Assembly: GCA_964016885.1 (NCBI GenBank) | Contig: OZ024762.1 | Coordinates: 22,134,001 to 22,198,000 of the forward strand | Length of the DNA stretch: 64,000 nt | Source of the DNA: Eledone cirrhosa | Taxonomy: Eukaryota | Direction: 5' to 3' | Part shown: positions 1 to 55,960 of the stretch, piece by piece | Position numbering within the stretch: position 1 is the stretch's first letter | Layout: every line of letters starts with the position of its first letter | Program-made: the position numbers and the translations under genes | Notes under the pieces: generated by a model | Databases searched by the model: none | What the model saw: the letters and a program-made list of their open reading frames with translations, nothing else | What the model was told of the DNA's origin: nothing

Positions 1-3000
1 TTTCACAGCTCTAGCATCACTCCTTCATAGGCTGACCAAGATATTCTCATGGAATGACCAAATGAGGTTTATTTTTCAACATGCAATATTGCACAGCTCT
101 AGCATCACTCCTTCATAGCCTGACCAAGATACGCTCATGGAATGACCAAATGAGGTTTATTTTTCAACATGCAAGATTTCACAGCTCTAGCATCACTCCT
201 TCATAGGCTGACCAAGATACTCTCATGGAATGACCAAATGAGGTTTATTTTTCAACATGCAAGATTGCACAGCTCTAGCATCACTCCTTCATAGGCTGAC
301 CAAGATACTCTCATGGAATGACCAATTGAGATTTATTTTTCAACATGCAAGATTGCACAGCTCTAGCATCACTCCTTCATAGGCTGACCAAGGTACTCTC
401 ATGGAATGACCAAATGAGGTATATTTTTCAACATGCAAGATTGCACAGCTCTAGCATCACTCCTTCATAGGCTGACCAATATACTCTCATGGAATGACCA
501 AATGAGGTTTATTTTTCAACATGCAAGATTGCACAGCTCTAGCATCACTCCTTCTCAGGCTGACCAAGATAATCTCATGGAATGACCAAATGGGGTATAT
601 TTTTCAACATGCAAGATTGCACAGCTCTAGCATCACTCCTTCATAGGCTGACCAAGATACTCTCATGGAATGACCAAATGAGGTTTATTTTTCAACATGC
701 AATATTGCACAGCTCTAGCATCACTCCTTCATAGGCTGACCAAGATACTCTCATGGAATGACCAAATGAGGTTTATTTTTCAACATGCAAGATTTCACAG
801 CTCTAGCATCACTCCTTCATAGGCTGACCAAGATACTCTCATGGAATGACCAAATGAGGTTTATTTTTCAACATGCAAGATTGCACAGCTCTAGCATCAC
901 TCCTTCATAGGCTGACCAAGATACTCTCATGGAATGACCAATTGAGGTTTATTTTTCAACATGCAAGATTGCACAGCTCTAGCATCACTCCTTCATAGGC
1001 TGACCAAGATACTCTCATGGAATGACCAAATGAGGTATATTTTTCAACATGCAAGATTGCACAGCTCTAGCATCACTCCTTCATAGGCTGACCAATATAA
1101 TCTCATGGAATGACCAAATGAGATTTATTTTTCAACATGCAAGATTGCACAGCCCTAGCATCACTCCTTCATAGGCTGACCAAGATACTGTCATGGAATG
1201 AACAAATGAGGTTTATTTTTCCACATGCAAGATTACACAGCTCTAGCATCACTCCTTCATAGGCTGACCAAGATACTCTCATGGAATGACCAAATGAGGT
1301 TTATTTTTCAACATGCAAGATTGCACAGCTCTAGCATCTATCCTTCATAGGCTGACCAAGATACTCTGATGGAATGACCAATTGAGGTTTATTTTTCAAC
1401 ATGCAAGATTGCACAGCTCTAGCATCACTCCTTCATAGGCTGACCAAGATACTCTCATGGAATGACCAAATGAGGTATATTTTTCAACTTGCAAGATTGC
1501 ACAGCTCTAGCATCACTCCTTCATAGGCTGAACAATATACTCTCATGGAATGACCAAATGAGGTTTATTTTTCAACATGCAAGATTTCACAGCTCTAGCA
1601 TCACTCCTTCATAGGCTGACCAAGATATTCTCATGGAATGACCAAATGAGGTTTATTTTTCAACAGGCAATATTGCACAGCTCTAGCATCACTCCTTCAT
1701 AGCCTGACCAAGATACGCTCATGGAATGACCAAATGAGGTTTATTTTTCAACATGCAAGATTTCACAGCTCTAGCATCACTCCTTCATAGGCTGACCAAG
1801 ATACTCTCATGGAATGAGGTTTATTTTTCAACATGCAATATTGCACAGCTCTAGCATCACTCCTTCATAGGCTGACCAAGATACTCTCATGGAATGACCA
1901 AATGAGGTTTATTTTTCAACATGCAAGATTTCACAGCTCTAGCATCACTCCTTCATAGGCTGACCAAGATACTCTCATGGAATGACCAAATGAGGTTTAA
2001 TTTTCAACATGCAAGATTGCACAGCTCTAGCATCACTCCTTCATAGGCTGACCAAGATACTCTCATGGAATGACCAATTGAGGTTTATTTTTCAACATGC
2101 AAGATTCACAGCTCTAGCATCACTCCTTCATAGGCTGACCAAGATACTCTCATGGAATGACCAAATGAGGTATATTTTTCAACATGCAAGATTGCACAGC
2201 TCTAGCATCACTCCTTCATAGGCTGACCAATATAATCTCATGGAATGACCAAATGAGATTTATTTTTCAACATGCAAGATTGCACAGCCCTAGCATCACT
2301 CCTTCATAGGCTGACCAAGATACTGTCATGGAATGAACAAATGAGGTTTATTTTTCCACATGCAAGATTACACAGCTCTAGCATCACTCCTTCAAAGGCT
2401 GACCAAGATACTCTCATGGAATGACCAAATGAGGTTTATTTTTCAACATGCAAGATTGCACAGCTCTAGCATCACTCCTTCATAGGCTGACCAAGATACT
2501 CTCATGGAATGACCAATTGAGATTTATTTTTCAACATGCAAGATTGCACAGCTCTAGCATCACTCCTTCATAGGCTGACCAAGATACTCTCATGGAATGA
2601 CCAAATGAGGTATATTTTTCAACATGCAAGATTGCACAGCTCTAGCATCACTCCTTCATAGGCTGACCAATATACTCTCATGGAATGACCAAATGAGGTT
2701 TATTTTTCAACATGCAAGATTGCACAGCTCTAGCATCACTCCTTCATAGGCTGACCAAGATAATCTCATGGAATGACCAAATGAGGTATATTTTTCAACA
2801 TGCAAGATTGCACAGCTCTAGCATCACTCCTTCATAGGCTGACCAATATACTCTCATGGAATGACCAAATGAGGTTTGTTTTTCAACATGCAAGATTTCA
2901 CAGCTCTAGCATCACTCCTTCATAGGCTGACCAAGATACTCTCATGGAATGACCAAATGAGGTTTTTTTTTCAACATGCAATATTGCACAGCTCTAGCAT

Positions 3001-3768
3001 CACTCCTTCATAGGCTGACCAAGATACTCTCATGGAATGACCAAATGAGGTTTATTTTTCAACATGCAAGATTTCACAGCTCTAGCATCACTCCTTCATA
3101 GGCTGACCAAGATACTCTCATGGAATGACCAAATGAGGTTTATTTTTCAACATGCAAGATTGCACAGTTCTAGCATCACTCCTTCATAGGCTGACCAAGA
3201 TACTCTCATGGAATGACCAATTGAGGTTTATTTTTCAACATTCAATATTGCACAGCTCTAGCATCACTCCTTCATAGGCTGACCAAGATACTCTCATGGA
3301 ATGACCAAATGAGGTATATTTTTCAACATGCAAGATTTCACAGCTCTAGCATCACTCCTTCATAGGCTGACCAATATAATCTCATGGAATGACCAAATGA
3401 GTTTTATTTTTCAACATGCAAGATTGCACAGCTCTAGCATCACTCCTTCATAGGCTGACCAAGATACTGTCATGGAATGAACAAATGAGGTTTATTTTTC
3501 AACATGCAAGATTACACAGCTCTAGCATCACTCCTTCATAGGCTGACCAAGATACTCTCATGGAATGACCAAATGAGGTTAATATTTCACATGCAAGATT
3601 GCACAGCTCTAGCATTACTCCTTCATAGGCTGACCAAGATACTCTCATGGAATGACCAAATGAGGTTTATTTTTCAACATGCAAGATTTCACAGCTCTAA
3701 CATCACTCCTTCATAGGTTTATTTTTCAACATGCAAGATTGCACAGCCCTAGCATCACTCTTTCATAG

Positions 3769-3799
3769 TGAGCCTATGAACTTTTAAGCCTACCTTATA
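3769..3799 (-). mobile_element. Mariner-like TIR plus TA (left end of hub 1; the same motif is at the left end of all 11 hubs)
   Basis: TGAGCCTATGAACTTTTAAGCCTACCTTATA. Its reverse complement TATAAGGTAGGCTTAAAAGTTCATAGGCTCA aligns by eye, ungapped, to the recalled Himar1 end TAACAGGTTGGCTGATAAGTCCCCGGTCTGA at about 20/31 positions. Confidence 0.7.
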
Positions 3800-4272
3800 T
3801 GCAAATTATTAAGAAATTCGAAATAATTTTTGCACCCATTTTTGCGATTAAGTAAAGACGGAGTTATCGTTCTTGAGATTTCGGCTCGTGGAAATTTAAG
3901 GAACTGATGTCGCTAAATCGCCAAATCATTTACCTGCCCTGTTGCCTCATGGGAGGGTAATGGCTGCCTTTTATTTTTTAAACGATGGCAGATTCTTTAG
4001 TTTCTTTCGCAGAATCTTGTTCCTTGTTTCATATAAGTAAATAATTAAAACATTTTGGCGAGAAGGATATTGAAAAGTCTGCTGTTGTTTTAAAAAAATA
4101 AAAGGCAGCCATTACCCTCCCATGGTGCAACGGGGCAGGTAAATGATTTGGCGATTTAGCGACATCAGTTCCTCAAATTTCTCCGATCCGAAATCTCAAG
4201 AACGATAACTCCGTCTTTACTTAATCGCAAAAATGGGTGCAAAAATTATTTCGAATTTCTTAATAATTTGCA

Positions 4273-4303
4273 TATAAGGTAGGCTTAAAAGTTCATAGGC
4301 TCA
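4273..4303 (+). mobile_element. Mariner-like TIR plus TA (right end of hub 1; the same motif is at the right end of all 11 hubs)
   Basis: TATAAGGTAGGCTTAAAAGTTCATAGGCTCA is the exact reverse complement of 3769-3799 and runs directly into satellite sequence (CTATGAA...). Confidence 0.7.
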
Positions 4304-7300
4304 CTATGAAAGAGTGATGCTAGGGCTGTGCAATCTTGCATGTTGAAAAATAAACCTATGAAGGAGTGATGTTAGAGCTGTGAAATCTTGCATGTTGAAA
4401 AATAAACCTCATTTGGTCATTCCATGAGAGTATCTTGGTCAGCCTATGAAGGAGTAATGCTAGAGCTGTGCAATCTTGCATGTGAAATATTAACCTCATT
4501 TGGTCATTCCATGAGAGTATCTTGGTCAGCCTATGAAGGAGTGATGCTAGAGCTGTGTAATCTTGCATGTTGAAAAATAAACCTCATTTGTTCATTCCAT
4601 GACAGTATCTTGGTCAGCCTATGAAGGAGTGATGCTAGAGCTGTGCAATCTTGCATGTTGAAAAATAAACCTATGAAGGAGTGATGTTAGAGCTGTGCAA
4701 TCTTGCGTGTTGAAAAATAAACCTCATTTGGTCATTCCATGAGAGTATCTTGGTCAGCCTATGAAGGAGTAATGCTAGAGCTGTGCAATCTTGCATGTGA
4801 AATATTAACCTCATTTGGTCATTCCATGAGAGTATCTTGGTCAGCCTATGAAGGAGTGATGCTAGAGCTGTGTAATCTTGCATGTTGAAAAATAAACCTC
4901 ATTTGTTCATTCCATGACAGTATCTTGGTCAGCCTATGAAGGAGTGATGCTAGAGCTGTGCAATCTTGCATGTTGAAAAATAAACCTATGAAGGAGTGAT
5001 GTTAGAGCTGTGCAATCTTGCGTGTTGAAAAATAAACCTCATTTGGTCATTCCATGAGAGTATCTTGGTCAGCCTATGAAGGAGTAATGCTAGAGCTGTG
5101 AAATCTTGCATGTGAAATATTAACCTCATTTGGTCATTCCATGAGAGTATCTTAGTCAGCCTATGAAGGAGTGATGCTAGAGCTGTGCAATCTTGCATGT
5201 TGAAAAATAAACCTCATTTGGTCATTCCATGAGAGTATATTGGTCAGCCTATGAAGGAGTGATGCTAGAGCTGTGCAATCTTGCATGTTGAAAAATATAC
5301 CTCATTTGGTCATTCCATGAGAATATCTTGGTCAGCCTATGAAGGAGTGATGCTAGAGCTGTGCAATCTTGCATGTTGAAAAATAAACCTCAATTGGTCA
5401 TTCCATGAGAGTATCTTGGTCAGCCTATGAAGGAGTGATGCTAGAGCTGTGCAATCTTGCATGTTGAAAAATAAACCTCAGTTGGTCATTCCATGAGAGT
5501 ATCTTGGTCAGCCTATGAAGGAGTGATGCTAGAGCTGTGAAATCTTGCATGTTGAAAAATAAACCTCATTTGGTCATTCCATGAGAGTATCTTGGTCAGC
5601 CTATGAAGGAGTGATGCTAGAGCTGTGTAATCTTGCATGTTGAAAAATAAACCTCATTTGTTCATTCCATGACAGTATCTTGGTCAGCCTATGAAGGAGT
5701 GATGCTAGAGCTGTGCAATCTTGCATGTTGAAAAATAAACCTATGAAGGAGTGATGTTAGAGCTGTGCAATCTTGCGTGTTGAAAAATAAACCTCATTTG
5801 GTCATTCCATGAGAGTATCTTGGTCAGCCTATGAAGGAGTAATGCTAGAGCTGTGAAATCTTGCATGTGAAATATTAACCTCATTTGGTCATTCCATGAG
5901 AGTATCTTAGTCAGCCTATGAAGGAGTGATGCTAGAGCTGTGCAATCTTGCATGTTGAAAAATAAACCTCATTTGGTCATTCCATGAGAGTATATTGGTC
6001 AGCCTATGAAGGAGTGATGCTAGAGCTGTGCAATCTTGCATGTTGAAAAATATACCTCATTTGGTCATTCCATGAGAGTATCTTGGTCAGCCTATGAAGG
6101 AGTGATGCTAGAGCTGTGCAATCTTGCATGTTGAAAAATAAACCTCAATTGGTCATTCCATGAGAGTATCTTGGTCAGCCTATGAAGGAGTGATGCTAGA
6201 GCTGTGCAATCTTGCATGTTGAAAAATAAACCTCAGTTGGTCATTCCATGAGAGTATCTTGGTCAGCCTATGAAGGAGTGATGCTAGAGCTGTGAAATCT
6301 TGCATGTTGAAAAATAAACCTCATTTGGTCATTCCATGAGAGTATCTTGGTCAGCCTATGAAGGAGTGATGCTAGAGCTGTGCAATCTTGCATGTTGAAA
6401 AATAAACCTCATTTGGTCATTCCATGAGAGTATATTGGTCAGCCTATGAAGGAGTGATGCTAGAGCTGTGCAATCTTGCATGTTGAAAAATATGCCTCAT
6501 TTGGTCATTCCATGAGATTATCTTGGTCAGCCTATGAAGGAGTGATGCTAGAGCTGTGCAATCTTGCATGTTGAAAAATAAACCTCATTTGGTCATTCCA
6601 TGAGAGTATCTTGGTCAGCCTATGAAGGAGTGATGCTAGAGCTGTGCAATCTTGCATGTTGAAAAATAACCCTCATTTGGTCATTCCATGAAAGTATCTA
6701 TCTAAGCCTATGAAGGAGTGATGCTAGAGCTGTGAAATCTTGCATGTTGCAAAATAAACCTCATTTGATCATTCCATGAGACTATCTTGGTCAGCTTATG
6801 AATGAGTGATGCTAGGGCTGTGCAATCTTGCATGTTGAAAAATAAACCTCATTTGGTCATTCCATGAGAGTATCTTGGTCAGCCTATGAAGGAGTGATGC
6901 TAGAGCTGTGAAATCTTGCATGTTGAAAAATAAACCTCATTTGGTCATTCCATAAGAGTATCTTGGTCAGCCTATGAAGGAGTGATGCTAGAGGTGTGCA
7001 ATCTTGCATGTTGAAAAATAAACCTCATTTGGTCATTCCATGAGAGTATCTTGTTCAGCCTATGAAGGAGTGAAGTTAGAGCTGTGCAATCTTGCATGTT
7101 GAAAAATAAACCTCATTTGGTCATTCCATGAGAGTATCTTGGTCAGCCTATGAAGGAGTGATGCTAGAGCTGTGAAATCTTGCATGTTGAAAAATAAACC
7201 TCATTTGGTCATTCCATGAGAGTATCTTGGTCAGCCTATGAAGGAGTGATGGTAGAACTGTGCAATCTTGCATGTTGAAAAATAAACCTCATTTGGTCAT

Positions 7301-7515: not shown

Positions 7516-7573
7516 TATATATATATATAATTATATATACATGTATATATATATATACATGTATATATATATA
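7516..7573. repeat. 58-bp TA linker 1, reverse-to-forward switch
   Basis: (TA)7-AT-(TA)4-CATG-(TA)7-CATG-(TA)6 lies between ...GAGTGATGC and CTCTCATGG... Confidence 0.95.
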
Positions 7574-10500: not shown

Positions 10501-12363
10501 GGTTTATTTTTCAACATGCAAGATTGCACAGCTCTAGCATCACTCCTTCATAGGCTGACCAAGATACTCTCATGGAATGACCAATTGAGATTTATTTTTC
10601 AACATGCAAGATTGCACAGCTCTAGCATCACTCCTTCATAGGCTGACCAAGATACTCTCATGGAATGACCAAATGGGTATATTTTTCAACATGCAAGATT
10701 GCACAGCTCTAGCATCACTCCTTCATAGGCTGACCAATATACTCTCATGGAATGACCAAATGAGGTTTATTTTTCAACATGCAAGATTGCACAGCTCTAG
10801 CATCACTCCTTCACAGGCTGACCAAGATAATCTCATGGAATGACCAAATGAGGTATATTTTTCAACATGCAAGATTGCACAGCTCTAGCATCACTCCTTC
10901 ATAGGCTGACCAATATACTCTCATGGAATGACCAAATGAGGTTTATTTTTCAACATGCAAGATTTCACAGCTCTAGCATCACTCCTTCATAGGCTGACCA
11001 AGATACTCTCATGGAATGACCAAATGAGGTTTATTTTTCAACATGCAATATTGCACAGCCCTAGCATCACTCGTTCATAGGCTGACCAAGATACTCTCAT
11101 GGAATGACCAAATGAGGTTTATTTTTCAACATGCAAGATTTCACAGCTCTAGCATCACTCCTTCATAGGCTGACCAAGATACTCTCATGGAATGACCAAA
11201 TGAGGTTTATTTTTCAACATGCAAGATTGCACAGCTCTAGCATCACTCCTTCATAGGCTGACCAAGATACTCTCATGGAATGACCAATTGAGGTTTATTT
11301 TTCAACATGCAAGATTGCACAGCTCTAGCATCACTCCTTCATAGGCTGACCAAGATACTCTCATGGAATGACCAAATGAGGTATATTTTTCAACATGCAA
11401 GATTGCACAGCTCTAGCATCACTCCTTCATAGGCTGACCAATATAATCTCATGGAATGACCAAATGAGATTTATTTTTCAACATGCAAGATTGCACAGCT
11501 CTAGCATCACTCCTTCATAGGCTGACCAAGATACTGTCATGGAATGAACAAATGAGGTTTATTTTTCAACATGCAAGATTGCACAGCTCTAGCATCACTC
11601 CTTCATAGGCTGACCAAGATACTCTCATGGAATGACCAAATGAGGTTTATTTTTCAACATGCAAGATTGCACAGTTCTAGCATCACTCCTTCATAGGCTG
11701 ACCAAGATACTCTCATGGAATGACCAAATGAGGTATATTTTTCAACATGCAAGATTGCACAGCTCTAGCATCACTCCTTCATAGGCTGACCAAGATACTC
11801 TCATGGAATGACCAAATGAGGTTTATTTTTCAACATGCAAGATTGCACAGCTCTAGCATCACTCCTTCATAGGCTGACCAAGATACTCTCATGGAATGAC
11901 CAAATGAGGTATATTTTTCAACATGCAAGATTTCACAGCTCTAGCATCACTCCTTCATAGGCTGACCAATATAATCTCATGGAATGACCAAATGAGTTTT
12001 ATTTTTCAACATGCAAGATTGCACAGCTCTAGCATCACTCCTTCATAGGCTGACCAAGATACTGTCATGGAATGAACAAATGAGGTTTATTTTTCAACAT
12101 GCAAGATTACACAGCTCTAGCATCACTCCTTCATAGGCTGACCAAGATACTCTCATGGAATGACCAAATGAGGTTAATATTTCACATGCAAGATTGCACA
12201 GCTCTAGCATTACTCCTTCATAGGCTGACCAAGATACTCTCATGGAATGACCAAATGAGGTTTATTTTTCAACATGCAAGATTTCACAGCTCTAACATCA
12301 CTCCTTCATAGGTTTATTTTTCAACATGCAAGATTGCACAGCCCTAGCATCACTCTTTCATAG

Positions 12364-12920
12364 TGAGCCTATGAACTTTTAAGCCTACCTTATTTGCAAA
12401 TTATTAAGAAATTCGAAATAATTTTTGCACCCATTTTTGCGATTAAGTAAAGACGGAGTTATCGTTCTTGAGATTTCGGCTCGTGGAAATTTAAGGAACT
12501 GATGTCGCTAAATCGCCAAATCATTTACCTGCCCCGTTGCCTCATGGGAGGGTAATGGCTGCCTTTTATTTTTTAAACGATGGCAGATTCTTTAGTTTCT
12601 TTCGCAGAATCTTGTTCCTTGTTTCATATAAGTAAATAATTAAAACATTTTGGCGAGAAGGATATTGAAAAGTCTGCTGTTGTTTTAAAAAAATAAAAGG
12701 CAGCCATTACCCTCCCATGGTGCAACGGGGCAGGTAAATGATTTGGCGATTTAGCGACATCAGTTCCTCAAATTTCTCCGAGCCGAAATCTCAAGAACGA
12801 TAACTCCGTCTTTACTTAATCGCAAAAATGGGTGCAAAAATTATTTCGAATTTCTTAGTAATTGTTTGTACATACTTACATTGTTTGCATATAAGGTAGG
12901 CTTAAAAGTTCATAGGCTCA
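12364..12920. repeat. Palindromic hub 2 (557 bp)
   Basis: Same as hub 1 plus the 22-bp TTGTTTGTACATACTTACATTG in the right arm. Confidence 0.95.
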
Positions 12921-14132
12921 CTATGAAAGAGTGATGCTAGGGCTATGCAATCTTGCATGTTGAAAAATAAACCTATGAAGGAGTGATGTTAGAGCTGTGC
13001 AATCTTGCATGTTGAAAAATAAACCTCATTTGGTCATTCCATGAGAGTATCTTGGTCAGCCTATGAAGGAGTGATGCTAGAGCTGTGCAATCTTGCATGT
13101 TGAAAAATATGCCTCATTTGGTCATTCCATGAGATTATCTTGGTCAGCCTATGAAGGAGTGATGCTAGAGCTGTGCAATCTTGCATGTTGAAAAATAAAC
13201 CTCATTTGGTCATTCCATGAGAGTATCTTGGTCAGCCTATGAAGGAGTGATGCTAGAGCTGTGCAATCTTGCATGTTGAAAAATAACCCTCATTTGGTCA
13301 TTCCATGAAAGTATCTATCTAAGCCTATGAAGGAGTGATGCTAGAGCTGTGAAATCTTGCATGTTGCAAAATAAACCTCATTTGATCATTCCATGAGACT
13401 ATCTTGGTCAGCTTATGAATGAGTGATGCTAGGGCTGTGCAATCTTGCATGTTGAAAAATAAACCTCATTTGGTCATTCCATGAGAGTATCTTGGTCAGC
13501 CTATGAAGGAGTGATGCTAGAGCTGTGAAATCTTGCATGTTGAAAAATAAACCTCATTTGGTCATTCCATAAGAGTATCTTGGTCAGCCTATGAAGGAGT
13601 GATGCTAGAGGTGTGCAATCTTGCATGTTGAAAAATAAACCTCATTTGGTCATTCCATGAGAGTATCTTGTTCAGCCTATGAAGGAGTGAAGTTAGAGCT
13701 GTGCAATCTTGCATGTTGAAAAATAAACCTCATTTGGTCATTCCATGAGAGTATCTTGGTCAGCCTATGAAGGAGTGATGCTAGAGCTGTGAAATCTTGC
13801 ATGTTGAAAAATAAACCTCATTTGGTCATTCCATGAGAGTATCTTGGTCAGCCTATGAAGGAGTGATGCTAGAACTGTGCAATCTTGCATGTTGAAAAAT
13901 AAACCTCATTTGGTCATTCCATGAGAGTATCCTGGTCAGCCCATGAAGGATTGATGCTAGAGCTGTGAAATCTTGCATGTTGAAAAATAAACCGCATTTG
14001 GTCATTCCATGAGTGTATGTTGGTCAGCCTATGGAGGAGTGATGCTAGAGCTGTGCAATCTTGCATGTTGCAAAATAAACCTCATTTGTCATTCCATGAG
14101 AGTATCTTGGTCAGCCTATGAAGGAGTGATGC

Positions 14133-38781: not shown

Positions 38782-39338
38782 TGAGCCTATGAACTTTTAA
38801 GCCTACCTTATATGCAAATTATTAAGAAATTCGAAATAATTTTTGCACCCATTTTTGCGACTAAGTAAAGACGGAGTTATCGTTCTTGAGATTTCGGCTC
38901 GTGGAAATTTAAGGAACTGATGTCGCTAAATCGCCAAATCATTTACCTGCCCCGTTGCCTCATGGGAGGGTAATGGCTGCCTTTTATTTTTTAAACGATG
39001 GCAGATTCTTTAGTTTCTTTCGCAGAATCTTGTTCCTTGTTTCATATAAGTAAATAATTAAAACATTTTGGCGAGAAGGATATTGAAAAGTCTGCTGTTG
39101 TTTTAAAAAAATAAAAAGCAGCCATTACCCTCCCATGGTGCAACGGGGCAGGTAAATGATTTGGCGATTTAGCGACATCAGTTCCTCAAATTTCTCCGAG
39201 CCGAAATCTCAAGAACGATAACTCCGTCTTTACTCAATCGCAAAAATGGGTGCAAAAATTATTTCGAATTTCTTAGTAATTATTTGTACATACTTACATT
39301 GTTTGCATATAAGGTAGGCTTAAAAGTTCATAGGCTCA
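38782..39338. repeat. Palindromic hub 8 (557 bp)
   Basis: Carries the GCGACTAAG and AAAAAGCAGCC variants. Confidence 0.95.
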
Positions 39339-40374
39339 CTATGAAAGAGTGATGCTAGGGCTATGCAATCTTGCATGTTGAAAAATAAACCTATGAAGGA
39401 GTGATGTTAGAGCTGTGCAATCTTGCATGTTGAAAAATAAACCTCATTTGGTCATTCCATGAGAGTATCTTGGTCAGCCTATGGAGGAGTAATGCTAGAG
39501 CTGTGCAATGTTGCATGTGGAAAAATAAACCTTATTTGGTCATTCCATGAGATTATCTTGGTCAGCCTATGAAGGAGTGATGCTAGAGATGTGCAATCTT
39601 GCATGTTGAAATATTAACCTCATTTGGTCATTCCATGAGAGTATCTTGGTCAGCCTATGAAGGAGTGTTGCTAGAGCTGTGCAATCTTGCATGTTGAAAA
39701 ATAACCCTCATTTGGTCATTCCATGAAAGTATCTATCTAAGCCTATGAAGGAGTGATGCTAGAGCTGTGAAATCTTGCATGTTGCAAAATAAACCTCATT
39801 TGATCATTCCATGAGAGTATCTTGGTCAGCTTGTGAATGAGTGATGCTAGGGCTGTGCAATCTTGCATGTTGAAAAATAAACCTCATTTGGTCATTCCAT
39901 GAGAGTATCTTGGTCAGCCTATGAAGGAGTGATGCTAGAGCTGTGAAATCTTGCATGTTGAAAAATAAACCTCATTTGGTCATTCCATGAGAGTATCTTG
40001 GTCAGCCTATGAAGGAGTGATGCTAGAGCTGTGCAATCTTGCATGTTAAAAAATAAACCTCATTTGGTCATTCCATGAGAGTATCTTGGTCAGCCTATGA
40101 AGGAGTGATGCTAGAACTGTGCAATCTTGCATGTTGAAAAATAAACCTCATTTGGTCATTCCATGAGAGTATCCTGGTCAGCCCATGAAAGAGTGATGCT
40201 AGAGCTGTGAAATCTTGCATGTTGAAAAATAAACCGCATTTGGTCATTCCATGAGAGTATGTTGGTCAGCCTATGAAGGAGTGATGCTAGAGCTGTGCAA
40301 TCTTGCATGTTGCAAAATAAACCTCATTTGTCATTCCATGAGAGTATCTTGGTCAGCCTATGAAGGAGTGATGC

Positions 40375-40432
40375 TATATATATATATAATTATATATACA
40401 TGTATATATATATATACATGTATATATATATA
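40375..40432. repeat. 58-bp TA linker 8
   Basis: Identical to linker 1. Confidence 0.95.
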
Positions 40433-42231
40433 CTCTCATGGAATGACCAAATGAGTTTTATTTTTCCACATGCAAGATTGCACAGCTCTAGCATCACTCC
40501 TTCATAGGCTGACCAAGATACTCTCATGGAATGACCAAATGAGGTTTATTTTTCCACATGCAAGATTGCACAGCTCTAGCATCACTCCTTCATAGGCTGA
40601 CCAAGATACTCTCATGGAATGACCAAATGAGGTTTATTTTTCAACATGCAAGATTGCACAGCTCTAGCATCACTCCTTCATAGGCTGACCAAGATACTCT
40701 CATGGAATGACCAAATGAGGTTTATTTTTCAACATGCAAGATTGCACAGCTCTAGCATCACTCCTTCATAGGCTGACCAAGATACTCTCATGGAATGACC
40801 AAATGAGGTTTATTTTTCAACATGCAAGATTGCACACCTCTAGCATCACTCCTTCATAGGCTGACCAAGATACTCTCATGGAATGACCAAATGAGGTTTA
40901 TTTTTCTACATGCAAAAATGCACAACTCTAGCATTACTCCTTCATAGGCTGACCAAGATACTCTCATGGAATGACCAAATGAGGTATATTTTTCAACATG
41001 CAAGATTGCACAGCTCTAGTATCACTCCTTCATAGGCTGACCAATATACTCTCATGGAATGACCAAATGAGGTTTATTTTTCAACATGCAAGATTTCACA
41101 GCCCTAGCATCACTCCTTCATAGGCTGACCAAGATACTCTCATGGAATGACCAAATGAGGTTTATTTTTCAACATGCAATATTGCACAGCTCTAGCATCA
41201 CTCCTTCATAGGCTGACCAAGATACTCTCATGGAATGACCAAATGAGGTTTATTTTTCAACATGCAAGTGTTCACAGCTCTAGCATCACTCCTTCATAGG
41301 CTGACCAAGATACTCTCATGGAATGACCAAATGAGGTTTATTTTTCAACATGCAAGATTGCACAGCTCTAGCATCACTCCTTCATAGGCTGACCAAGATA
41401 CTCTCATGGAATGACCAATTGAGGTTTATTTTTCAACATGCAAGATTGCACAGCTCTAGCATCACTCCTTCATAGGCTGACCAAGATACTCTCATGGAAT
41501 GACCAAATGAGGTATATTTTTCAACATGCAAGATTGCACAGCTCTAGCATCACTCCTTCATAGGCTGACCAATATACTCTCATGGAATGACCAAATGAGG
41601 TTTATTTTTCAACATGCAAGATTGCACAGCTCTAGCATCACTCCTTCATAGGCTGACCAAGATACTCTCATGGAATGACCAAATGAGGTTTATTTTTCAA
41701 CATGCAAGATTGCACACCTCTAGCATCACTCCTTCATAGGCTGACCAAGATACTCTCATGGAAAGACCAAATTAGCATTTTTATTCAACATGCAAGATTG
41801 CACAGCTCTAACATCACTCCTTCATAGGCTGACTAAGATACTCTCATGGAATGACCAAATGAGGTTTATTTTTCCACATGCAACATTGCACAGCTCTAGC
41901 ATCACTCCTTCATAGGCTGACCAAGATACTCTCATGGAATGACCAAATGAGGTTTATTTTTCAACATGAAAGTTTGCACAGCTCTAGCATCACTCCTTCA
42001 TAGGCTGACCAAGATACTCTCATGGAATGACCAAATGAGGTTTATTTTTCCACATGCAAGATTGCACAGCTCTAGCATTACTCCTTCATAGGCTGACCAA
42101 GATACTCTCATGGAATGACCAAATGAGGTTTATTTTTCAACATGCAAGATTTCACAGCTCTAACATCATTCCTTCAAAGGTTTATTTTTCAACATACAAG
42201 ATTGCACAGCCCTAGCATCACTCTTTCATAG

Positions 42232-42788
42232 TGAGCCTATGAACTTTTAAGCCTACCTTATATGCAAATTATTAAGAAATTCGAAATAATTTTTGCCCCC
42301 ATTTTTGCGACTAAGTAAAGACGGAGTTATCGTTCTTGAGATTTCGGCTCGTGGAAATTTAAGGAACTGATGTCGCTAAATCGCCAAATCATTTACCTGC
42401 CCCGTTGCCTCATGGGAGGGTAATGGCTGCGTTTTATTTTTTAAACGATGGCAGATTCTTTAGTTTCTTTCGCAGAATCTTGTTCCTTGTTTCATATAAG
42501 TAAATAATTAAAACATTTTGGCGAGAAGGATATTGAAAAGTCTGCTGTTGTTTTAAAAAAATAAAAGGCAGCCATTACTCTCCCATGGTGCAACGGGGCA
42601 GGTAAATGATTTGGCGATTTAGCGACATCAGTTCCTCAAATTTGTCCGAGCCGAAATCTCAAGAACGATAACTCCGTCTTTACTTAATCGCAAAAATGGG
42701 TGCAAAAATTATTTCCAATTTCTTAGTAATTATTTGTACATACTTACATTGTTTGCATATAAGGTAGGCTTAAAAGTTCATAGGCTCA
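42232..42788. repeat. Palindromic hub 9 (557 bp)
   Basis: Copy of hub 7, 6373 bp downstream, with the same diagnostic changes. Confidence 0.95.
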
Positions 42789-43913
42789 CTATGAAAGAGT
42801 GATGCTAGGGCTATTGCAATCTTGCATGTTGAAAAATAAACCTATGAAGGAGTGATGTTAGATCTGTGCAATCTTGCATGTTGAAAAATAAACCTCATTT
42901 GGTCATTCCATGAGAGTATCTTGGTCAGCCTATGGAGGAGTAATGCTAGAGCTGTGCAATGTTGCATGTGGAAAAATAAACCGTATTTGGTCATTCCATG
43001 AGAGTATCTTGGTCAGCCTATGAAGGAGTGATGCTAGAGCTGTGCAATCTTGCATGTTGAAATATTAACCTCATTTGGTCATTCCATGAGAGTATCTTGG
43101 TCAGCCTATGAAGGAGTGATGCTAGAGCTGTGCAATCTTGCATGTTGAAAAATAAACCTCATTTGGTCATTCCATGAGAGTATCTTGGTCAGCCTATGAA
43201 GGAGTGTTGCTAGAGCTGTGCAATCTTGCATGTTGAAAAATAACCCTCATTTGGTCATTCCATGAAAGTATCTATCTAAGCCTATGAAGGAGTGATGCTA
43301 GAGCTGTGAAATCTTGCATGTTGCAAAATAAACCTCATTTGATCATTCCATGAGAGTATCTTGGTCAGCTTGTGAATGAGTGATGCTAGGGCTGTGCAAT
43401 CTTGCATGTTGAAAAATAAACCTCATTTGGTCATTCCATGAGAGTATCTTGGTCAGCCTATGAAGGAGTGATGCTAGAGCTGTGAAATCTTGCATGTTGA
43501 AAAATAAACCTCATTTGGTCATTCCATGAGAGTATCTTGGTCAGCCTATGAAGGAGTGATGCTAGAGCTGTGCAATCTTGCATGTTAAAAAATAAACCTC
43601 ATTTGGTCATTCCATGAGAGTATCTTGGTCAGCCTATGAAGGAGTGATGCTAGAACTGTGCAATCTTGCATGTTGAAAAATAAACCTCATTTGGTCATTC
43701 CATGAGAGTATCCTAATCAGCCCATGAAAGAGTGATGCTAGAGCTGTGAAATCTTGCATGTTGAAAAATAAACCGCATTTGGTCATTCCATGAGAGTATG
43801 TTGGTCAGCCTATGAAGGAGTGATGCTAGAGCTGTGCAATCTTGCATGTTGCAAAATAAACCTCATTTGTCATTCCATGAGAGTATCTTGGTCAGCCTAT
43901 GAAGGAGTGATGC

Positions 43914-43971
43914 TATATATATATATAATTATATATACATGTATATATATATATACATGTATATATATATA
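43914..43971. repeat. 58-bp TA linker 9
   Basis: Identical to linker 1. Confidence 0.95.
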
Positions 43972-45154
43972 CTCTCATGGAATGACCAAATGAGTTTTAT
44001 TTTTCCACATGCAAGATTGCACAGCTCTAGCATCACTCCTTCATAGGCTGACCAAGATACTCTCATGGAATGACCAAATGAGGTTTATTTTTCCACATGC
44101 AAGATTGCACAGCTCTAGCATCACTCCTTCATAGGCTGACCAAGATACTCTCATGGAATGACCAAATGAGGTTTATTTTTCAACATGCAAGATTGCACAG
44201 CTCTAGCATCACTCCTTCATAGGCTGACCAAGATACTCTCATGGAATGACCAAATGAGGTTTATTTTTCCACATGCAACATTGCACAGCTCTAACATCAC
44301 TCCTTCATAGGCTTACCAAGATACTCTCATGGAATGACCAAATGAGGTTTATTTTTCAACATGCAAGATTGCACACCTCTAGCATCACTCCTTCATAGGC
44401 TGACCAAGATACTCTCATGGAATGACCAAATGAGGTTTATTTTTCTACATGCAAAAATGCACAACTCTAGCATCACTCCTTCATAGGCTGACTAAGATAC
44501 TCTCATGGAATGACCAAATGGGGTTTATTTTTCAACATGCAAGATTTCACAGCTCTAGCATCAATCCTTCATAGGCTGACCAAGATACTCTCATGGAATG
44601 ACCAAATGAGGTTTATTTTTCCACATTCAAGATTGCACAGCTCTAGCATCACTCCTTCATAGGCTGGCCAAGTTACTCTCATGGATTGACCAAATGCGGT
44701 TTATTTTTCCACATGCAAGATTGCACAGCTCTAACATCACTCCTTCATAGGCTGACTAAGATACTCTCATGGAATGACCAAATGAGGTTTATTTTTCCAC
44801 ATGCAACATTGCACAGCTCTAGCATCACTCCTTCATAGGCTGACCAAGATACTCTCATGGAATGACCAAATGAGGTTTATTTTTCAACATGAAAGATTGC
44901 ACAGCTCTAGCATCACTCCTTCATAGGCTGACCAAGATACTCTCATGGAATGACCAAATGAGGTTTATTTTTCCACATGCAAGATTGCACAGCTCTAGCA
45001 TTACTCCTTCATAGGCTGACCAAGATACTCTCATGGAATGACCAAATGAGGTTTATTTTTCAACATGCAAGATTTCACAGCTCTAACATCATTCCTTCAT
45101 AGGTTTATTTTTCAACATGCAAGATTGCACAGCCCTAGCATCACTCTTTCATAG

Positions 45155-45711
45155 TGAGCCTATGAACTTTTAAGCCTACCTTATATGCAAATTATTAAGA
45201 AATTCGAAATAATTTTTGCACCCATTTTTGCGACTAAGTAAAGACGGAGTTATCGTTCTTGAGATTTCGGCTCGTGGAAATTTAAGGAACTGATGTCGCT
45301 AAATCGCCAAATCATTTACCTGCCCCGTTGCCTCATGGGAGGGTAATGGCTGCCTTTTATTTTTTAAACGATGGCAGATTCTTTAGTTTCTTTCGCAGAA
45401 TCTTGTTCCTTGTTTCATATAAGTAAATAATTAAAACATTTTGGCGAGAAGGATATTGAAAAGTCTGCTGTTGTTTTAAAAAAATAAAAAGCAGCCATTA
45501 CCCTCCCATGGTGCAACGGGGCAGGTAAATGATTTGGCGATTTAGCGACATCAGTTCCTCAAATTTCTCCGAGCCGAAATCTCAAGAACGATAACTCCGT
45601 CTTTACTCAATCGCAAAAATGGGTGCAAAAATTATTTCGAATTTCTTAGTAATTATTTGTACATACTTACATTGTTTGCATATAAGGTAGGCTTAAAAGT
45701 TCATAGGCTCA
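45155..45711. repeat. Palindromic hub 10 (557 bp)
   Basis: Copy of hub 8, 6373 bp downstream. Confidence 0.95.
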
Positions 45712-46748
45712 CTATGAAAGAGTGATGCTAGGGCTATGCAATCTTGCATGTTGAAAAATAAACCTATGAAGGAGTGATGTTAGAGCTGTGCAATCTTGCA
45801 TGTTGAAAAATAAACCTCATTTGGTCATTCCATGAGAGTATCTTGGTCAGCCTATGGAGGAGTAATGCTAGAGCTGTGCAATGTTGCATGTGGAAAAATA
45901 AACCTTATTTGGTCATTCCATGAGATTATCTTGGTCAGCCTATGAAGGAGTGATGCTAGAGATGTGCAATCTTGCATGTTGAAATATTAACCTCATTTGG
46001 TCATTCCATGAGAGTATCTTGGTCAGCCTATGAAGGAGTGTTGCTAGAGCTGTGCAATCTTGCATGTTGAAAAATAACCCTCATTTGGTCATTCCATGAA
46101 AGTATCTATCTAAGCCTATGAAGGAGTGATGCTAGAGCTGTGAAATCTTGCATGTTGCAAAATAAACCTCATTTGATCATTCCATGAGAGTATCTTGGTC
46201 AGCCTTTGAATGAGTGATGCTAGGGCTGTGCAATCTTGCATGTTGAAAAATAAACCTCATTTGGTCATTCCATGAGAGTATCTTGGTCAGCCTATGAAGG
46301 AGTGATGCTAGAGCTGTGAAATCTTGCATGTTGAAAAATAAACCTCATTTGGTCATTCCATGAGAGTATCTTGGTCAGCCTATGAAGGAGTGATGCTAGA
46401 GCTGTGCAATCTTGCATGTTAAAAAATAAACCTCATTTGGTCATTCCATGAGAGTATCTTGGTCAGCCTATGAAGGAGTGATGCTAGAACTGTGCAATCT
46501 TGCATGTTGAAAAATAAACCTCATTTGGTCATTCCATGAGAGTATCCTGGTCAGCCCATGAAAGAGTGATGCTAGAGCTGTGAAATCTTGCATGTTGAAA
46601 AATAAACCGCATTTGGTCATTCCATGAGAGTATGTTGGTCAGCCTATGAAGGAGTGATGCTAGAGCTGTGCAATCTTGCATGTTGCAAAATAAACCTCAT
46701 TTGTCATTCCATTGAGAGTATCTTGGTCAGCCTATGAAGGAGTGATGC

Positions 46749-46806
46749 TATATATATATATAATTATATATACATGTATATATATATATACATGTATATA
46801 TATATA
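46749..46806. repeat. 58-bp TA linker 10
   Basis: Identical to linker 1. Confidence 0.95.
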
Positions 46807-47989
46807 CTCTCATGGAATGACCAAATGAGTTTTATTTTTCCACATGCAAGATTGCACAGCTCTAGCATCACTCCTTCATAGGCTGACCAAGATACTCTCA
46901 TGGAATGACCAAATGAGGTTTATTTTTCAACATGCAAGATTGCACAGCTCTAGCATCACTCCTTCATAGGCTGACCAAGATACTCTCATGGAATGACCAA
47001 ATGAGGTTTATTTTTCAACATGCAAGATTGCACAGCTCTAGCATCACTCCTTCATAGGCTGACCAAGATACTCTCATGGAATGACCAAATGAGGTTTATT
47101 TTTCCACATGCAACATTGCACAGCTCTAACATCACTCCTTCATAGGCTTACCAAGATACTCTCATGGAATGACCAAATGAGGTTTATTTTTCAACATGCA
47201 AGATTGCACACCTCTAGCATCACTCCTTCATAGGCTGACCAAGATACTCTCATGGAATGACCAAATGAGGTTTATTTTTCTACATGCAAAAATGCACAAC
47301 TCTAGCATCACTCCTTCATAGGCTGACTAAGATACTCTCATGGAATGACCAAATGGGGTTTATTTTTCAACATGCAAGATTTCACAGCTCTAGCATCAAT
47401 CCTTCATAGGCTGACCAAGATACTCTCATGGAATGACCAAATGAGGTTTATTTTTCCACATTCAAGATTGCACAGCTCTAGCATCACTCCTTCATAGGCT
47501 GGCCAAGTTACTCTCATGGATTGACCAAATGCGGTTTATTTTTCCACATGCAAGATTGCACAGCTCTAACATCACTCCTTCATAGGCTGACGAAGATACT
47601 CTCATGGAATGACCAAATGAGGTTTATTTTTCCACATGCAACATTGCACAGCTCTAGCATCACTCCTTCATAGGCTGACCAAGATACTCTCATGGAATGA
47701 CCAAATGAGGTTTATTTTTCAACATGAAAGATTGCACAGCTCTAGCATCACTCCTTCATAGGCTGACCAAGATACTCTCATGGAATGACCAAATGAGGTT
47801 TATTTTTCCACATGCAAGATTGCACAGCTCTAGCATTACTCCTTCATAGGCTGACCAAGATACTCTCATGGAATGACCAAATGAGGTTTATTTTTCAACA
47901 TGCAAGATTTCACAGCTCTAACATCATTCCTTCATAGGTTTATTTTTCAACATGCAAGATTGCACAGCCCTAGCATCACTCTTTCATAG

Positions 47990-48546
47990 TGAGCCTATGA
48001 ACTTTTAAGCCTACCTTATATGCAAATTATTAAGAAATTCGAAATAATTTTTGCACCCATTTTTGCGACTAAGTAAAGACGGAGTTATCGTTCTTGAGAT
48101 TTCGGCTCGTGGAAATTTAAGGAACTGATGTCGCTAAATCGCCAAATCATTTACCTGCCCCGTTGCCTCATGGGAGGGTAATGGCTGCCTTTTATTTTTT
48201 AAACGATGGCAGATTCTTTAGTTTCTTTCGCAGAATCTTGTTCCTTGTTTCATATAAGTAAATAATTAAAACATTTTGGCGAGAAGGATATTGAAAAGTC
48301 TGCTGTTGTTTTAAAAAAATAAAAAGCAGCCATTACCCTCCCATGGTGCAACGGGGCAGGTAAATGATTTGGCGATTTAGCGACATCAGTTCCTCAAATT
48401 TCTCCGAGCCGAAATCTCAAGAACGATAACTCCGTCTTTACTTAATCGCAAAAATGGGTGCAAAAATTATTTCGAATTTCTTAGTAATTATTTGTACATA
48501 CTTACATTGTTTGCATATAAGGTAGGCTTAAAAGTTCATAGGCTCA
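47990..48546. repeat. Palindromic hub 11 (557 bp)
   Basis: Same subtype as hubs 8 and 10. Confidence 0.95.
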
Positions 48547-49846
48547 CTATGAAAGAGTGATGCTAGGGCTATGCAATCTTGCATGTTGAAAAATAAACCT
48601 ATGAAGGAGTGATGTTAGAGCTGTGCAATCTTGCATGTTGAAAAATAAACCTCATTTGGTCATTCCATGAGAGTATCTTGGTCAGCCTATGGAGGAGTAA
48701 TGCTAGAGCTGTGCAATGTTGCATGTGGAAAAATAAACCTTATTTGGTCATTCCATGAGATTATCTTGGTCAGCCTATGAAGGAGTGATGCTAGAGATGT
48801 GCAATCTTGCATGTTGAAATATTAACCTCATTTGGTCATTCCATGAGAGTATCTTGGTCAGCCTATGAAGGAGTGATGCTAGAGCTGTGCAATCTTGCAT
48901 GTTGAAAAATAACCCTCATTTGGTCATTCCATGAAAGTATCTATCTAAGCCTATGAAGGAGTGATGCTAGAGCTGTGAGATCTTGCATGTTGTAAAATAA
49001 ACCTCATTTGATCATTCCATGAGAGTATCTTGGTCAGCTTATGAATGAGTGATGCTAGGGCTGTGCAATCTTGCATGTTGAAAAATAAAACTCATTTGGT
49101 CATTCCATGAGAGTATCTTGGTCAGCCTATGAAGGAGTGATGCTAGAGCTGTGAAATCTTGCATGATGAAAAATAAACCTCATTTGGTCATTCCATGAGA
49201 TTATCTTGGTCAACCTATGAAGGAGTGATGCTAGAGGTGTGCAATCTTGCATGTTGAAAAATAAACCTCATTTGGTCATTCCATGAGAGTATCTTGTTCA
49301 GCCTATGAAGGAGTGATGTTAGAGCTGTGAAATCTTGCATGTTGAAAAATAAACCTCATTTCGTCATTCCATGAGAGTATCTTGGTCAGCCTATGAAGGA
49401 GTGATGCTAGAGCTGTGCAATCTTGCATGTTGAAAAATAAACCTCATTTGGTCATTCCATGAGAGTATCTTCGTCAGCCTATGAAGGAGTGATGCTAGAG
49501 CTGTGAAATCTTGCATGTTGAGAAATAAACCTCATTTGGTCATTCCATGAGAGTATCTTGGTCAGCCTATGAAGGAGTGATGCTAGAACTGTGCAATCTT
49601 GCATGTTGAAAAATAAACCTCATTTGGTCATTCCATGAGAGTATCCTGGTCAGCCCATGAAGGAGTGATGTTAGAGCTGTGAAATCTTGCATGTTGAAAA
49701 ATATACCGCATTTGGTCATTCCATGAGAGTATGTTGGTCAGCCAATGAAGGAGTGATGCTAGAGCTGTGCAATCTTGCATGTTGCAAAATAAACCTCATT
49801 TGTCATTCCATGTGAGTATCTTGGTCAGCCTATGAAGGAGTGATGC

Positions 49847-49904
49847 TATATATATATATAATTATATATACATGTATATATATATATACATGTATATATA
49901 TATA
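49847..49904. repeat. 58-bp TA linker 11
   Basis: Identical to linker 1. Confidence 0.95.
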
Positions 49905-52379
49905 CTCTCATGGAATGACCAAATTAGTTTTATTTTTCCACATGCAAGATTGCACAGCTCTAACATCACTCCTTCATAGGCTGACCAAGATACTCTCATG
50001 GAATGACCAAATGAGGTTTATTTTTCCACATGCAAGATTGCACAGCTCTAGCATCACTCCTTCATAGGCTGACCAAGATACTCTCATGGAATGACCAAAT
50101 GAGGTTTATTTTTCAACATTCAAGATTGCACAGCTCTAGCATCACTCCTTCATAGGCTAACCAAGATAATCTCATGGAATGACCAAATGAGTTTAATATT
50201 TCAACATGCAAGATTGCACAGCTCTAGCATCACTCCTTCATAGGCTGACCAAGATACTCTCATGGAATGATCAAATGAGGTTTATTTTTCCACATGCAAC
50301 ATTGCACAGCTCTAGCATCACTCCTTCATAGGCTGACCAAGATACTCTCATGGAATGACCAAATGAGGTTTATTTTTCAACATGCAAGATTGCACACCTC
50401 TAGCATCACTCCTTCATAGGCTGACCAAGAAACTCTCATGGAATGACCAAATGAGGTTTATTTTTCTACATGCAAAAATGCACAACTCTAGCATTACTCC
50501 TTCATAGGCTGACCAAGATACTCTCATGGAATGACCAAATGAGGTTTATTTTTCAACATGCAAGATTGCACAGCTCTAGCATCACTCCTTCATAGGCTGA
50601 CTAAGATACTCTCACAGAATGACAAAATGAGGTTTATTTTTCAACATGCAAGATTGCACAGCTCTAGCATCACTCCTTCATAGGCTGACCAAGATACCCT
50701 CATGGAATGACCAAATGAGGGTTATTTTTCAACATGCAAGATTGCACAGCTCTAGCATCAATCCTTCATAGGCTGACCAAGATGCTCTCATGGAATGACC
50801 AAATGAGGTTTATTTTTCTACATGCAAGATTGCACAGCGCTAGCATCACTCCTTCATAGGCTGACCAAGATACTCTCATGGAATGACCAAATGAGGTTTA
50901 TTTTTCAACATGCAAGATTTCACAGCTCTAACATCACTCCTTCATGGGTTTATTTTTCAACATGCAAGATTGCACAGCTCTAGCATCACTCCTTCATAGG
51001 CTGACCAAGATACTCTCATGGAATGACCAAATGAGGTTTATTTTTCAACATGCAAGATTGCACAGCTCTAGCATCACCCCTTCATAGGCTGACCAAGATA
51101 CTCTCATGGAATGACCAAATGAGGTTTATTTTTCTACATGCAAAAATGCACAACTCTAGCATTACTCCTTCATAGGCTGACCAAGATACTCTCATGGAAT
51201 GACCAAATGAGGTTTATTTTTCAACATGCAAGATTGCACAGCTCTAGCATCACTCCTTCATAGGCTGACCAAGATACTCTCATGGAATGACCAAATGAGG
51301 GTTATTTTTCAACATGCAAGATTGCACAGCTCTAGCATCACTCTTTCATAGGCTGACGAAGATACTCTCATGGAATGACCAAATGAGATTTATTTTTCCA
51401 CATGCAAGAATGCACAGCTCTAGCATCACTCCTTCATAGGCTGACCAAGATACTCTCATGGAATGACCAAATGAGGTTTATTTTTCAACATGCAAGATTG
51501 CACAGCTCTAGCATCACTCCTTCATAGGCTGACCAAGATAATCTCACGGAATGACCAAATGAGGTTTTTTTTTCAACATGCAAGATTGCACAGCTCTAGC
51601 ATCAATCCATCATAGGCTGACCAAGCTACTCTCATGGAATGACCAAATGAGGTTTATTTTTCTACATGCGAGATTGCACAGCGCTAGCATCTCTCCTTCA
51701 TAGACTGACGAAGATACTCTCATGGAATGACCAAATGAGTTTTATTTTTCCACATGCAAGATTGCACAGCTCTAGCATCACTCCTTCATAAGCTGACCAA
51801 GATACGCTCATGGAATGATCAAATGAGGTTTATTTTTCAACATGCAAGATTGCACAGCTCTAGCATCACCCCTTCATAGGCTGACCAAGATACTCTCATG
51901 GAATGACCAAGTTAGGTTTATTTTTCAACATGCAAGATTTCAGAGCTCTAGCCTCACTCCTTCATAGTCTGACGAAGATACTCTCATGGAATGACCAAAT
52001 GAGATTTATTTTTCCACATGCAAGATTTCACAGCTCTAGCATCACTCCTTCATAGGCTGACCAAGATACTCTCATGGAATGACCAAATGAGGTTTATTTT
52101 TCCACATTCAAGATTGCACAACTCTAGCATCACTCCTTCATAGGCTGACCAAGTTACTCTCATGGATTGACCAAATGAGATTTATTTTTCCACATGCAAG
52201 ATTGCACAGCTCTAGCTTCACTCCTTCATAGGCTGACCAAGTTACTCTCATGGAATGACCAAATGAGGTTTATTTTTCCACATGTAAGAAATCTTGCATG
52301 TTGAAAAATAAACCTCATTTGGTCATTCCATGAGAGTATCTTGGTCAGCCTATGAAGGAGTGATGTTAGACTGTGCAAT

Positions 52380-52586
52380 CCCTACTGTCTTAAATTTAGA
52401 AAACATATTTTCTATGAGGTCACTAAACCTGCTAGAAACAGCAGCTAACTCTCCTCCATATCACACCACTCCCTACTGTCTTAAATTTAGAAGGCACATA
52501 TCCTCTATGAGGTCACTAAACCTGCTAGAAACAACAGCTAACTCTCCCTCATATCACAACCCTCCCTACTGTCTTAAATTTAGAAA
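52380..52586 (+). repeat. About 91-93 bp tandem repeat (~2.3 copies) abutting the satellite end
   Basis: CCCTACTGTCTTAAATTTAGAA occurs at 52380, 52471 and 52564. GAGGTCACTAAACCTGCTAGAAACA occurs twice. Probably a fragment of an interspersed repeat. Confidence 0.8.

Positions 52587-53975: not shown

Positions 53976-54405
<430 letters not shown>

Positions 54406-55113: not shown

Positions 55114-55960
<847 letters not shown>

Follow-up and report, generated by a model that had tools for sequence, protein, structure and literature searches.

A satellite array that turns back on itself many times, almost always at one of two recurring joints, raises the question of where such joints come from and why their copies are alike. 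We addressed this question in a 64,000-bp window of the Eledone cirrhosa genome (assembly GCA_964016885.1, contig OZ024762.1, positions 22,134,001 to 22,198,000; all positions below count from the first letter of the window), in which Tandem Repeats Finder and a k-mer orientation scan resolved an 88-bp satellite over 1-52380 into 24 oriented segments with 23 flips. In the reading that we consider probable, a MITE (miniature inverted-repeat transposable element) expanded internally into a tandem array, a template switch at a hairpin and a join at TA microhomology produced the joints, and unequal exchange with occasional inverted copying then shaped the chain.

The array, its terminal joint, the forward-to-reverse joints (hubs) and the reverse-to-forward joints (linkers) are located as follows, all without assigned strand.

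1..52380: whole array, ~554 monomer slots, made up of 12 forward and 11 reverse arms and a single reverse monomer at the end
52270..52305: third joint type, a spacer-less fold-back at 52287/52288 near the right end of the array, then one reverse monomer
3766..4306: hub 1 (541 bp; without the 22-bp segment)
12361..12923: hub 2 (563 bp)
15900..16462: hub 3
20847..21409: hub 4
27728..28290: hub 5
31615..32177: hub 6
35856..36418: hub 7
38779..39341: hub 8
42229..42791: hub 9 (matches hub 7 exactly)
45152..45714: hub 10 (matches hub 8 exactly)
47987..48549: hub 11
7516..7573: linker 1, interrupted (TA)n with runs of 7, 4, 7 and 6 units; the monomers on either side each end at a TA
14133..14190: linker 2
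17672..17729: linker 3
23146..23203: linker 4
30115..30172: linker 5
34002..34059: linker 6
37541..37598: linker 7
40375..40432: linker 8
43914..43971: linker 9
46749..46806: linker 10
49847..49904: linker 11

The satellite continues past the left edge of the window. Arms range from 11.7 to 54.4 monomers, and when every arm was aligned to the consensus, the 480 full inner monomers diverged from it by a mean of 2.7%. All 11 forward-to-reverse flips carry a hub and all 11 reverse-to-forward flips a linker. An earlier note on this DNA had counted 22 flips at two strictly alternating joint types; hubs and linkers do alternate, but a 23rd flip, of the third type, also lies inside 1-52380. Alternation of joint direction is forced by geometry, and the informative part is that each direction has one sequence. 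Our measurements returned the same range of linker-to-linker distances as the earlier note (2834-6969 bp), and its constant polarity was borne out by both the hub spacer and the linker (each 11 forward, 0 reversed), as was its claim of 11 identical 58-bp linkers, which agree letter for letter. The 22-bp segment, said to lie always in the right hub arm, does so in 10 of the 11 hubs, the exception being hub 1, which does not have it (541 versus 563 bp).

Hubs and linkers are joints of different kinds. Hubs 2-11 measure 563 bp each, with 0-9 substitutions between hubs, and the two arms of a hub mirror each other imperfectly (5-8 differences in 95 inner-arm sites, the 22-bp indel and a 113-bp spacer). 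All 22 hub-facing arm ends carry the same monomer with a 36-bp deletion and the same two marks, so that the mirror symmetry extends into the arrays, two to five monomers deep. Across the linker, the reverse arm ends at monomer phase 11 and the forward arm begins at phase 39, and at none of the 11 linkers is any mark common to the first two monomer pairs that face each other. The hub is a mirror joint, while the linker is a join of two array parts that were already different. Finding TA at both linker ends has a chance probability of ~0.002, given four TA sites in 88.

The deletion monomer also occurs in two other settings. Local 315-bp higher-order repeats at 4355-5881 multiply it within reverse arm 1, and a copy at 50895-50997 lies inside the last forward arm, the monomer being found elsewhere only beside hubs. 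This copy may be left over from a hub that was lost, or may have come from exchange with a tract beside a hub.

The source of the monomer was sought in sequencing data. Four of 21 listed public runs were aligned to two short stretches of the window: X14 and X19 (organism D), X1 (organism A) and X2 (organism B). A word share of 0.05 of a run was not counted as evidence by itself, and the monomer alignment held 383 further loose-end rows beyond those listed. The monomer can be read against a parent element with terminal inverted repeats (TIRs) as in this example.

52288..52380, forward strand: example monomer in the sense of the parent; 52298-52356 is the 3' end of the parent (last codons, stop, 3' untranslated part and inner TIR), and the rest is 5' subterminal

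Records matching 52298-52356, where coverage is very deep, run on into the rest of the TIR, a TA and unrelated flanks; the number continuing past this stretch is 813 out of 7900 contigs for X14, 9522 out of 26576 reads for X19, 176 out of 710 records for X2 and 4 out of 122 for X1. On the side of the hub, X14, X19 and X2 show the same TIR-plus-TA end past 12380-12389. Window letters and loose-end consensus together give an end of ~31 bp that is the same at the 5' and 3' sides, in keeping with TIRs of ~30 bp. Both end types reach TA and then unrelated flanks, as read separately for each end, with no copy showing both. The parent is dispersed and high in copy number, given hundreds of contigs with unrelated flanks (813 in X14 and 176 in X2 at one loose end). 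Upstream of 52298, 54 contigs of X2 show nine open codons in frame with the H-V-E-K-stop of the monomer, a combination that we take to resemble mariner transposase C-termini. A different upstream end, found in X14 (375 contigs) and X19 (14467 reads), overlaps the hub-side loose end by 8 letters and suggests an internally deleted element of ~200 bp that has both ends.

With these two ends the 88 bp are fully accounted for, as a 39-bp 5' part plus a 59-bp 3' part less the shared words of 3 and 7 bases. The ends are fused at a 3-base ATG microhomology, and the limits of the unit are 7-base CTATGAA words. An interior-derived monomer, short direct repeats at its limits and decayed TIRs are features of MITE-derived satellites, and all were found here. 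Judged by its letters and by the read ends, the 88-bp unit appears to be made of the fused ends of a high-copy TIR element, which is likely a mariner-derived MITE. TIRs of ~30 bp (32 nt in bandit) and TA flanks are mariner hallmarks (PMC2041818). Tandem 88-bp monomers are present in independent raw reads, 187 reads of X19 crossing the 12363-to-12310 joint. The depth of X2 is 20.9 past the tandem joint against 14322 in the preceding bin, and organism B seems to hold the parent element and little of the satellite.

Searches of metagenome and viral contigs gave 0 matches to the monomer word, and a degenerate TIR motif had 67 metagenome loci, none with an inverted partner. A 44-bp stretch of one metagenome contig (L041, 1233-1276) matches the parent 5' end at 86%, with no partner end and no long open reading frame, and may belong to a related family in another organism. 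Loose ends of X14 and X19 at 52347-52370 hint at other tandem or dimer MITE joints, possibly with a longer, undeleted monomer. Candidate extra joints in X19 (1200 and 3887 reads) are inseparable from short alignments of ordinary 5' ends, and they were not used.

The same parent element reappears at the hubs, as illustrated by hub 2.

12325..12389, reverse strand: parent MITE 5' end at the left of hub 2 (subterminal part plus TIR, tip damaged; the same on both sides of every hub)
12390..12894, no strand assigned: inner hub element, limits approximate (long inverted arms and a ~113-bp spacer; a medium-copy dispersed family in organism D)

The outer 29 bp of each hub side are the parent 5' TIR, shortened at the tip, and the two copies stand head to head. 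No TIR tip or 3' TIR remains in the window, where the single partial match, at 11073, is a point variant within a monomer. With their TIR tips damaged, the units are predicted to be immobile. The inner ~500 bp of the hub have a multi-copy depth of their own in X14 and X19, much lower than that of the TIR part, and none in X2; we interpret them as a second hairpin element, so far unclassified. At four sites (12343, 12356, 12365 and 12381) both hub arms carry the minority letter of the dispersed family, the other letter making up 53272 of 63524 depth units of X14 at 12365. This sharing argues that both arms derive from one MITE end rather than from two insertions. X1 and X14 each have one contig that extends from 12399 by 10 letters, 8 of which match the arm that bears the 22-bp segment, and from these two short contigs the segment is likely ancestral and the left arm the deleted one.

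Other identities were considered for the hub. CACTA and Academ readings of its ends were dropped, since the reads place the element end 29 bp inside the hub. In an Rfam search of 3400-7800, none of the 14 matches came near its gathering score, the hairpin or the TA tract being what produced them, and a Penelope/retrozyme fold-back model was rejected as no hammerhead appeared in that search.

The hubs also record how the chain grew. Among their 14 variable columns, 0 of 91 pairs conflict in the four-gamete test, and neighbouring hubs are closest kin: hubs 7-11 form a clade ordered by position, in which 7 equals 9 and 8 equals 10, and hubs 3, 5 and 6 are identical. Four tandem duplications (2.8-6.4 kb), all beginning within same-orientation arms, have offsets of 6373, 3539, 3887 and 2835 bp and identities of 99.98, 99.43, 99.81 and 99.74%. 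The conflict-free nested tree and these four duplications uphold the proposal of the earlier note that one founding palindrome was amplified in tandem with variable arms. Two features stand out in this history.

33831..46203, forward strand: youngest of the tandem duplications, offset by 6373 bp, with a single mismatch in 6000 bp; each copy carries two hubs and two linkers
4188..4669, reverse strand: right arm of hub 1, tract of 482 bp that agrees in every letter (100%) with the left arms of hubs 1 and 3 read inverted

Between its arms, hub 1 has 0 differences in the outer 319 bp; each of the remaining 10 hubs shows 4-14 mismatches and 1-2 gaps there. The copied 482-bp tract explains why hub 1 is without the 22-bp segment, through inverted-arm copying that left the spacer unflipped. 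Inverted arm-to-arm copying thus occurred after the founding event; one conversion tract was found, and 0 of 11 hubs are flipped. Of the multi-mark monomer types, 108 forward and 56 reverse, 6 are common to both orientations. Inverted matches of 420 bp (99.3-99.5%) also join 5122-5541 and 5877-6296, in a reverse arm, with 34898-35317 and 41271-41690, in distant forward arms, and may be a further instance of exchange across orientations.

The sameness of the joints can be weighed against this history. The 13 hub substitutions predict 1.3 in a 58-bp linker, and zero change has P = 0.26 at that rate, so that no constraint on the linker is needed. The joints probably owe their sameness to recent common descent and not to selection.

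We propose the following course of events for the reading favored here. The interior of a MITE would have been shortened at the ATG microhomology and repeated between CTATGAA words; the parts of this step are visible in the monomer, and their order is our suggestion. The young array would have started at the MITE 5' TIR, beside the ~500-bp element with long inverted arms, and a template switch across those arms may have copied the flank backwards, giving the hub. A second switch or join, with 2-base TA microhomology on each side of a self-complementary (TA)n filler, would then have restored direction and left the linker. Misaligned exchange between same-orientation arms could have duplicated hub-plus-linker modules, as seen in the four tandem duplications, and altered arm lengths. 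Finally, occasional copying between inverted arms may re-perfect a palindrome, as at hub 1.

Several observations weigh against this course of events. No single molecule was seen spanning a hub or a linker; the linker itself, the fold-back that ends the array and the 6-kb duplicate with one mismatch are seen only in the assembly. X14 has an 81-bp contig across the joint of TIR and inner element, at depth 25, as well as a single contig that shows the 36-bp deletion, at depth 51.5. The short sides of these joint contigs (19-28 and 22 letters) fall below the 31-letter bar for bridging, however, and they are suggestive only. A single event with two switches would leave an unmirrored hub and unique flank at the right end, where a third joint is found instead. 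For several reverse monomer types beside linkers, moreover, the window contains no forward counterpart, so that the proposal also has to assume further rearrangement. The ~200-bp MITE is a reconstruction that joins two consensus ends. No transposase, which in an autonomous mariner partner would be of the DD34D type, and no full-length element was recovered in scans of metagenome and viral contigs or in Pfam searches of 8 right-flank frames, and the label mariner draws on the length of the TIR, the flanking TA and the putative C-terminal likeness. As hubs 3, 5 and 6 do not differ, they are also compatible with an initial rolling-circle burst.

Such a burst is the core of one alternative, in which the first macro-unit was excised, closed into a circle at the TA linker, amplified by rolling circle and reinserted, with unequal exchange only editing the product later. 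This history would fit the single linker sequence found in all 11 copies, the constant polarity and the star that hubs 1-6 form around the identical hubs 3, 5 and 6. We nevertheless regard it as unlikely, because hubs 7-11 are nested and ordered by position, and because the duplications are graded in age and differ in their start points, with arms of widely different monomer number.

An alternative that we regard as about equally unlikely starts from a formerly mobile, Foldback-like composite. Two inverted mariner MITEs around a hairpin core would have been moved through their outer 3' TIRs by a mariner transposase into (TA)n and multiplied by tandem insertion or duplication, the outer TIRs being lost later. 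The earlier note had likewise compared the units with Foldback elements, and in the order of domains the likeness stands: as described for Tetris of Drosophila virilis, a source of satellite arrays, such elements have inverted arms with tandem outer repeats, a non-repetitive inner domain and a non-coding middle (PMC4079207). The parent also inserts beside TA, often with TA-rich flanks, and the linker is (TA)n. The likeness fails at the outer termini. The available account of Tetris gives inverted flanking domains and target duplications of 8-10 bp (PMC4079207), neither of which is found here: the outer ends lie at the different monomer phases noted above, without common marks, and the only candidate duplication is the 2-base TA at a shared linker. 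In contrast to Foldback elements, the TIRs here face inward, their tips are damaged and the units stand in tandem. The lack of a 3' TIR or TIR tip in the window and the derivation of both arms from one MITE end also speak against the composite.

A bolder extension, which we put forward only as a long shot, would make the hub a self-renewing palindrome seed, in which the hairpin element between two mariner 5' TIRs drives inverted template switches and seeds macro-dyad arrays on several chromosomes, the hubs acting as centromeric loops or as hairpin RNA that silences the parent mariner. The perfect 482-bp tract of hub 1 and the new fold-back at the right end are cues in this direction, and are to be read with the same reserve.

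It is very improbable that the inversions are library fold-backs or assembly chimeras. No spanning long read was seen, a 6-kb duplicate with one base difference could be an assembly expansion, and the spacer-less terminal fold-back has no supporting contig among the matches listed. Fold-back artefacts, however, are perfect mirrors at random points, whereas these arms are imperfect, with an indel and a spacer; the linker is not a mirror, the hub variants form a tree without conflict, and the raw reads of X19 independently contain the tandem monomers.

Selection that keeps the hubs is equally hard to credit, whether for a structural role in centromeric or heterochromatic chromatin, where they would form hairpin or cruciform loops, or for double-stranded RNA that they would supply against the parent transposon: functions have been proposed for Tribolium inversion sites (PMC13081366; PMC12581902) and for the transposon-related centroids of cichlids (PMC13652916), the folding energy of a hub strand comes to about -254 to -256 kcal/mol, a value taken without a shuffle control, and the palindromes persist in 11 copies, but young age explains the identity of the joints, the 142 distinct monomer marks have no A-to-G excess (0.52 per site, A>G and T>C) and no ADAR-type signature, and no Rfam family reached gathering score in 3400-7800.

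To the right of the array the window holds repeats of other kinds. A 93-bp unit (2.3 copies, 52379-52587), which is high-copy in all four runs, abuts the right end of the array. An imperfect hairpin of ~200 bp at 53040-53240, spotted by eye, is MITE-like. Simple repeats (CA, TA, CAT, CAC, GGT and ACAT) are dense over 54000-64000, and Pfam searches of 8 of the 49 stop-to-stop frames of this flank found no family. Within 54000-64000, a 115-bp tandem array (59870-60845 and 60849-61076) is broken by an insertion of ~185 bp, the reverse complement of a 184-bp unit at 62002-62500 that is presumably a common octopus repeat resembling short interspersed nuclear elements.

We compared the array with known systems through those parts of the published accounts that were available to us. 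Macro-dyad satellite arrays, in which inversion sites are conserved and arm length varies, are known from Tribolium freemani and T. madens (PMC12581902; PMC13081366), and the suggestion of the earlier note that such an architecture had not been described was thus overstated. Both systems have kilobase inverted sub-arrays, variable monomer number, few conserved inversion sites and cassette-like frames. Most Tribolium arrays consist of two sub-arrays (71.8% in T. freemani), with sites on many chromosomes, whereas the present array is one chain of 23 arms. The Tribolium type is further marked by a (peri)centromeric position and was verified on raw long reads. The T. freemani inversions are described as free of foreign sequence, whereas the hubs here hold the ~500-bp second element between two TIRs and the linkers are (TA)n. 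The origin is also traceable here, unlike that of the Tribolium arrays. According to the available text of the T. madens paper, such symmetries were documented only in Tribolium (PMC13081366).

MITE-derived satellites are known from Xenopus, namely Xstir/Xmix and miDNA4, the latter from a Tc1/mariner MITE (PMC12628747; PMC9659126). They resemble the present satellite in having a tandem unit from the MITE interior, short direct repeats at its limits and decaying terminal repeats. For miDNA4 the capture of a pre-existing repeat has been proposed, whereas the monomer here consists wholly of the element's own ends, including the last codons and stop, and the accounts of these satellites in the review portions available describe no chain of inverted units. 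The cichlid centroids (PMC13652916) share alternating satellite blocks that spread from transposon-related elements; they are ~15 kb long, inverted and two per centromere, ~200 kb apart, whereas the hubs are 0.55 kb, 11 in a row and of one orientation.

In the DUP-TRP/INV-DUP (duplication-triplication/inverted-duplication) rearrangements of human disease loci (PMC11293582) and in origin-dependent inverted-repeat amplification (ODIRA) in yeast (PMC10766183), one junction likewise lies at an inverted-repeat pair and the other has 1-9 bp of microhomology, in some cases plus inserted sequence. Those events are somatic, disease-related or from the laboratory, and each is single, whereas here the pair of junctions is multiplied 11 times in a germ-line satellite. 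The unmirrored distal repeat pair and the original flank are missing at the right end, which is a fold-back followed by unrelated repeats; the left end falls beyond the window. Because the unmirrored end is absent and only 6 multi-mark types are common to both orientations, the array is not a simple member of either class. We found no description of the present satellite, or of a tandem chain of TIR-hub palindromes, in the open-access literature, subscription papers and repeat databases lying outside this scope. Within that literature, the combination of conserved inversion sites with birth from a MITE and a traceable origin appears to be new.

In Tribolium, conserved satellite inversion sites have been interpreted as a sign of structural function (PMC13081366; PMC12581902). 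The present locus offers an example of such sites from another animal lineage, and one in which every piece has a visible source: the monomer in the two ends of a MITE, the hub in a TIR and a second hairpin element, and the linker in a microsatellite. As the identity of the joints follows from descent, the array can serve as a neutral null model for satellites of this kind and, if the preferred reading is true, shows a route by which satellite DNA can acquire fixed inversion points that have no function. It also makes approachable the germ-line persistence of multi-kilobase palindromes and conversion between inverted arms without crossing over. If the hub should instead prove to be a self-renewing seed, the array would be the equivalent, in a mollusc, of the macro-dyads of Tribolium and the cichlid centroids, caught as it arose.

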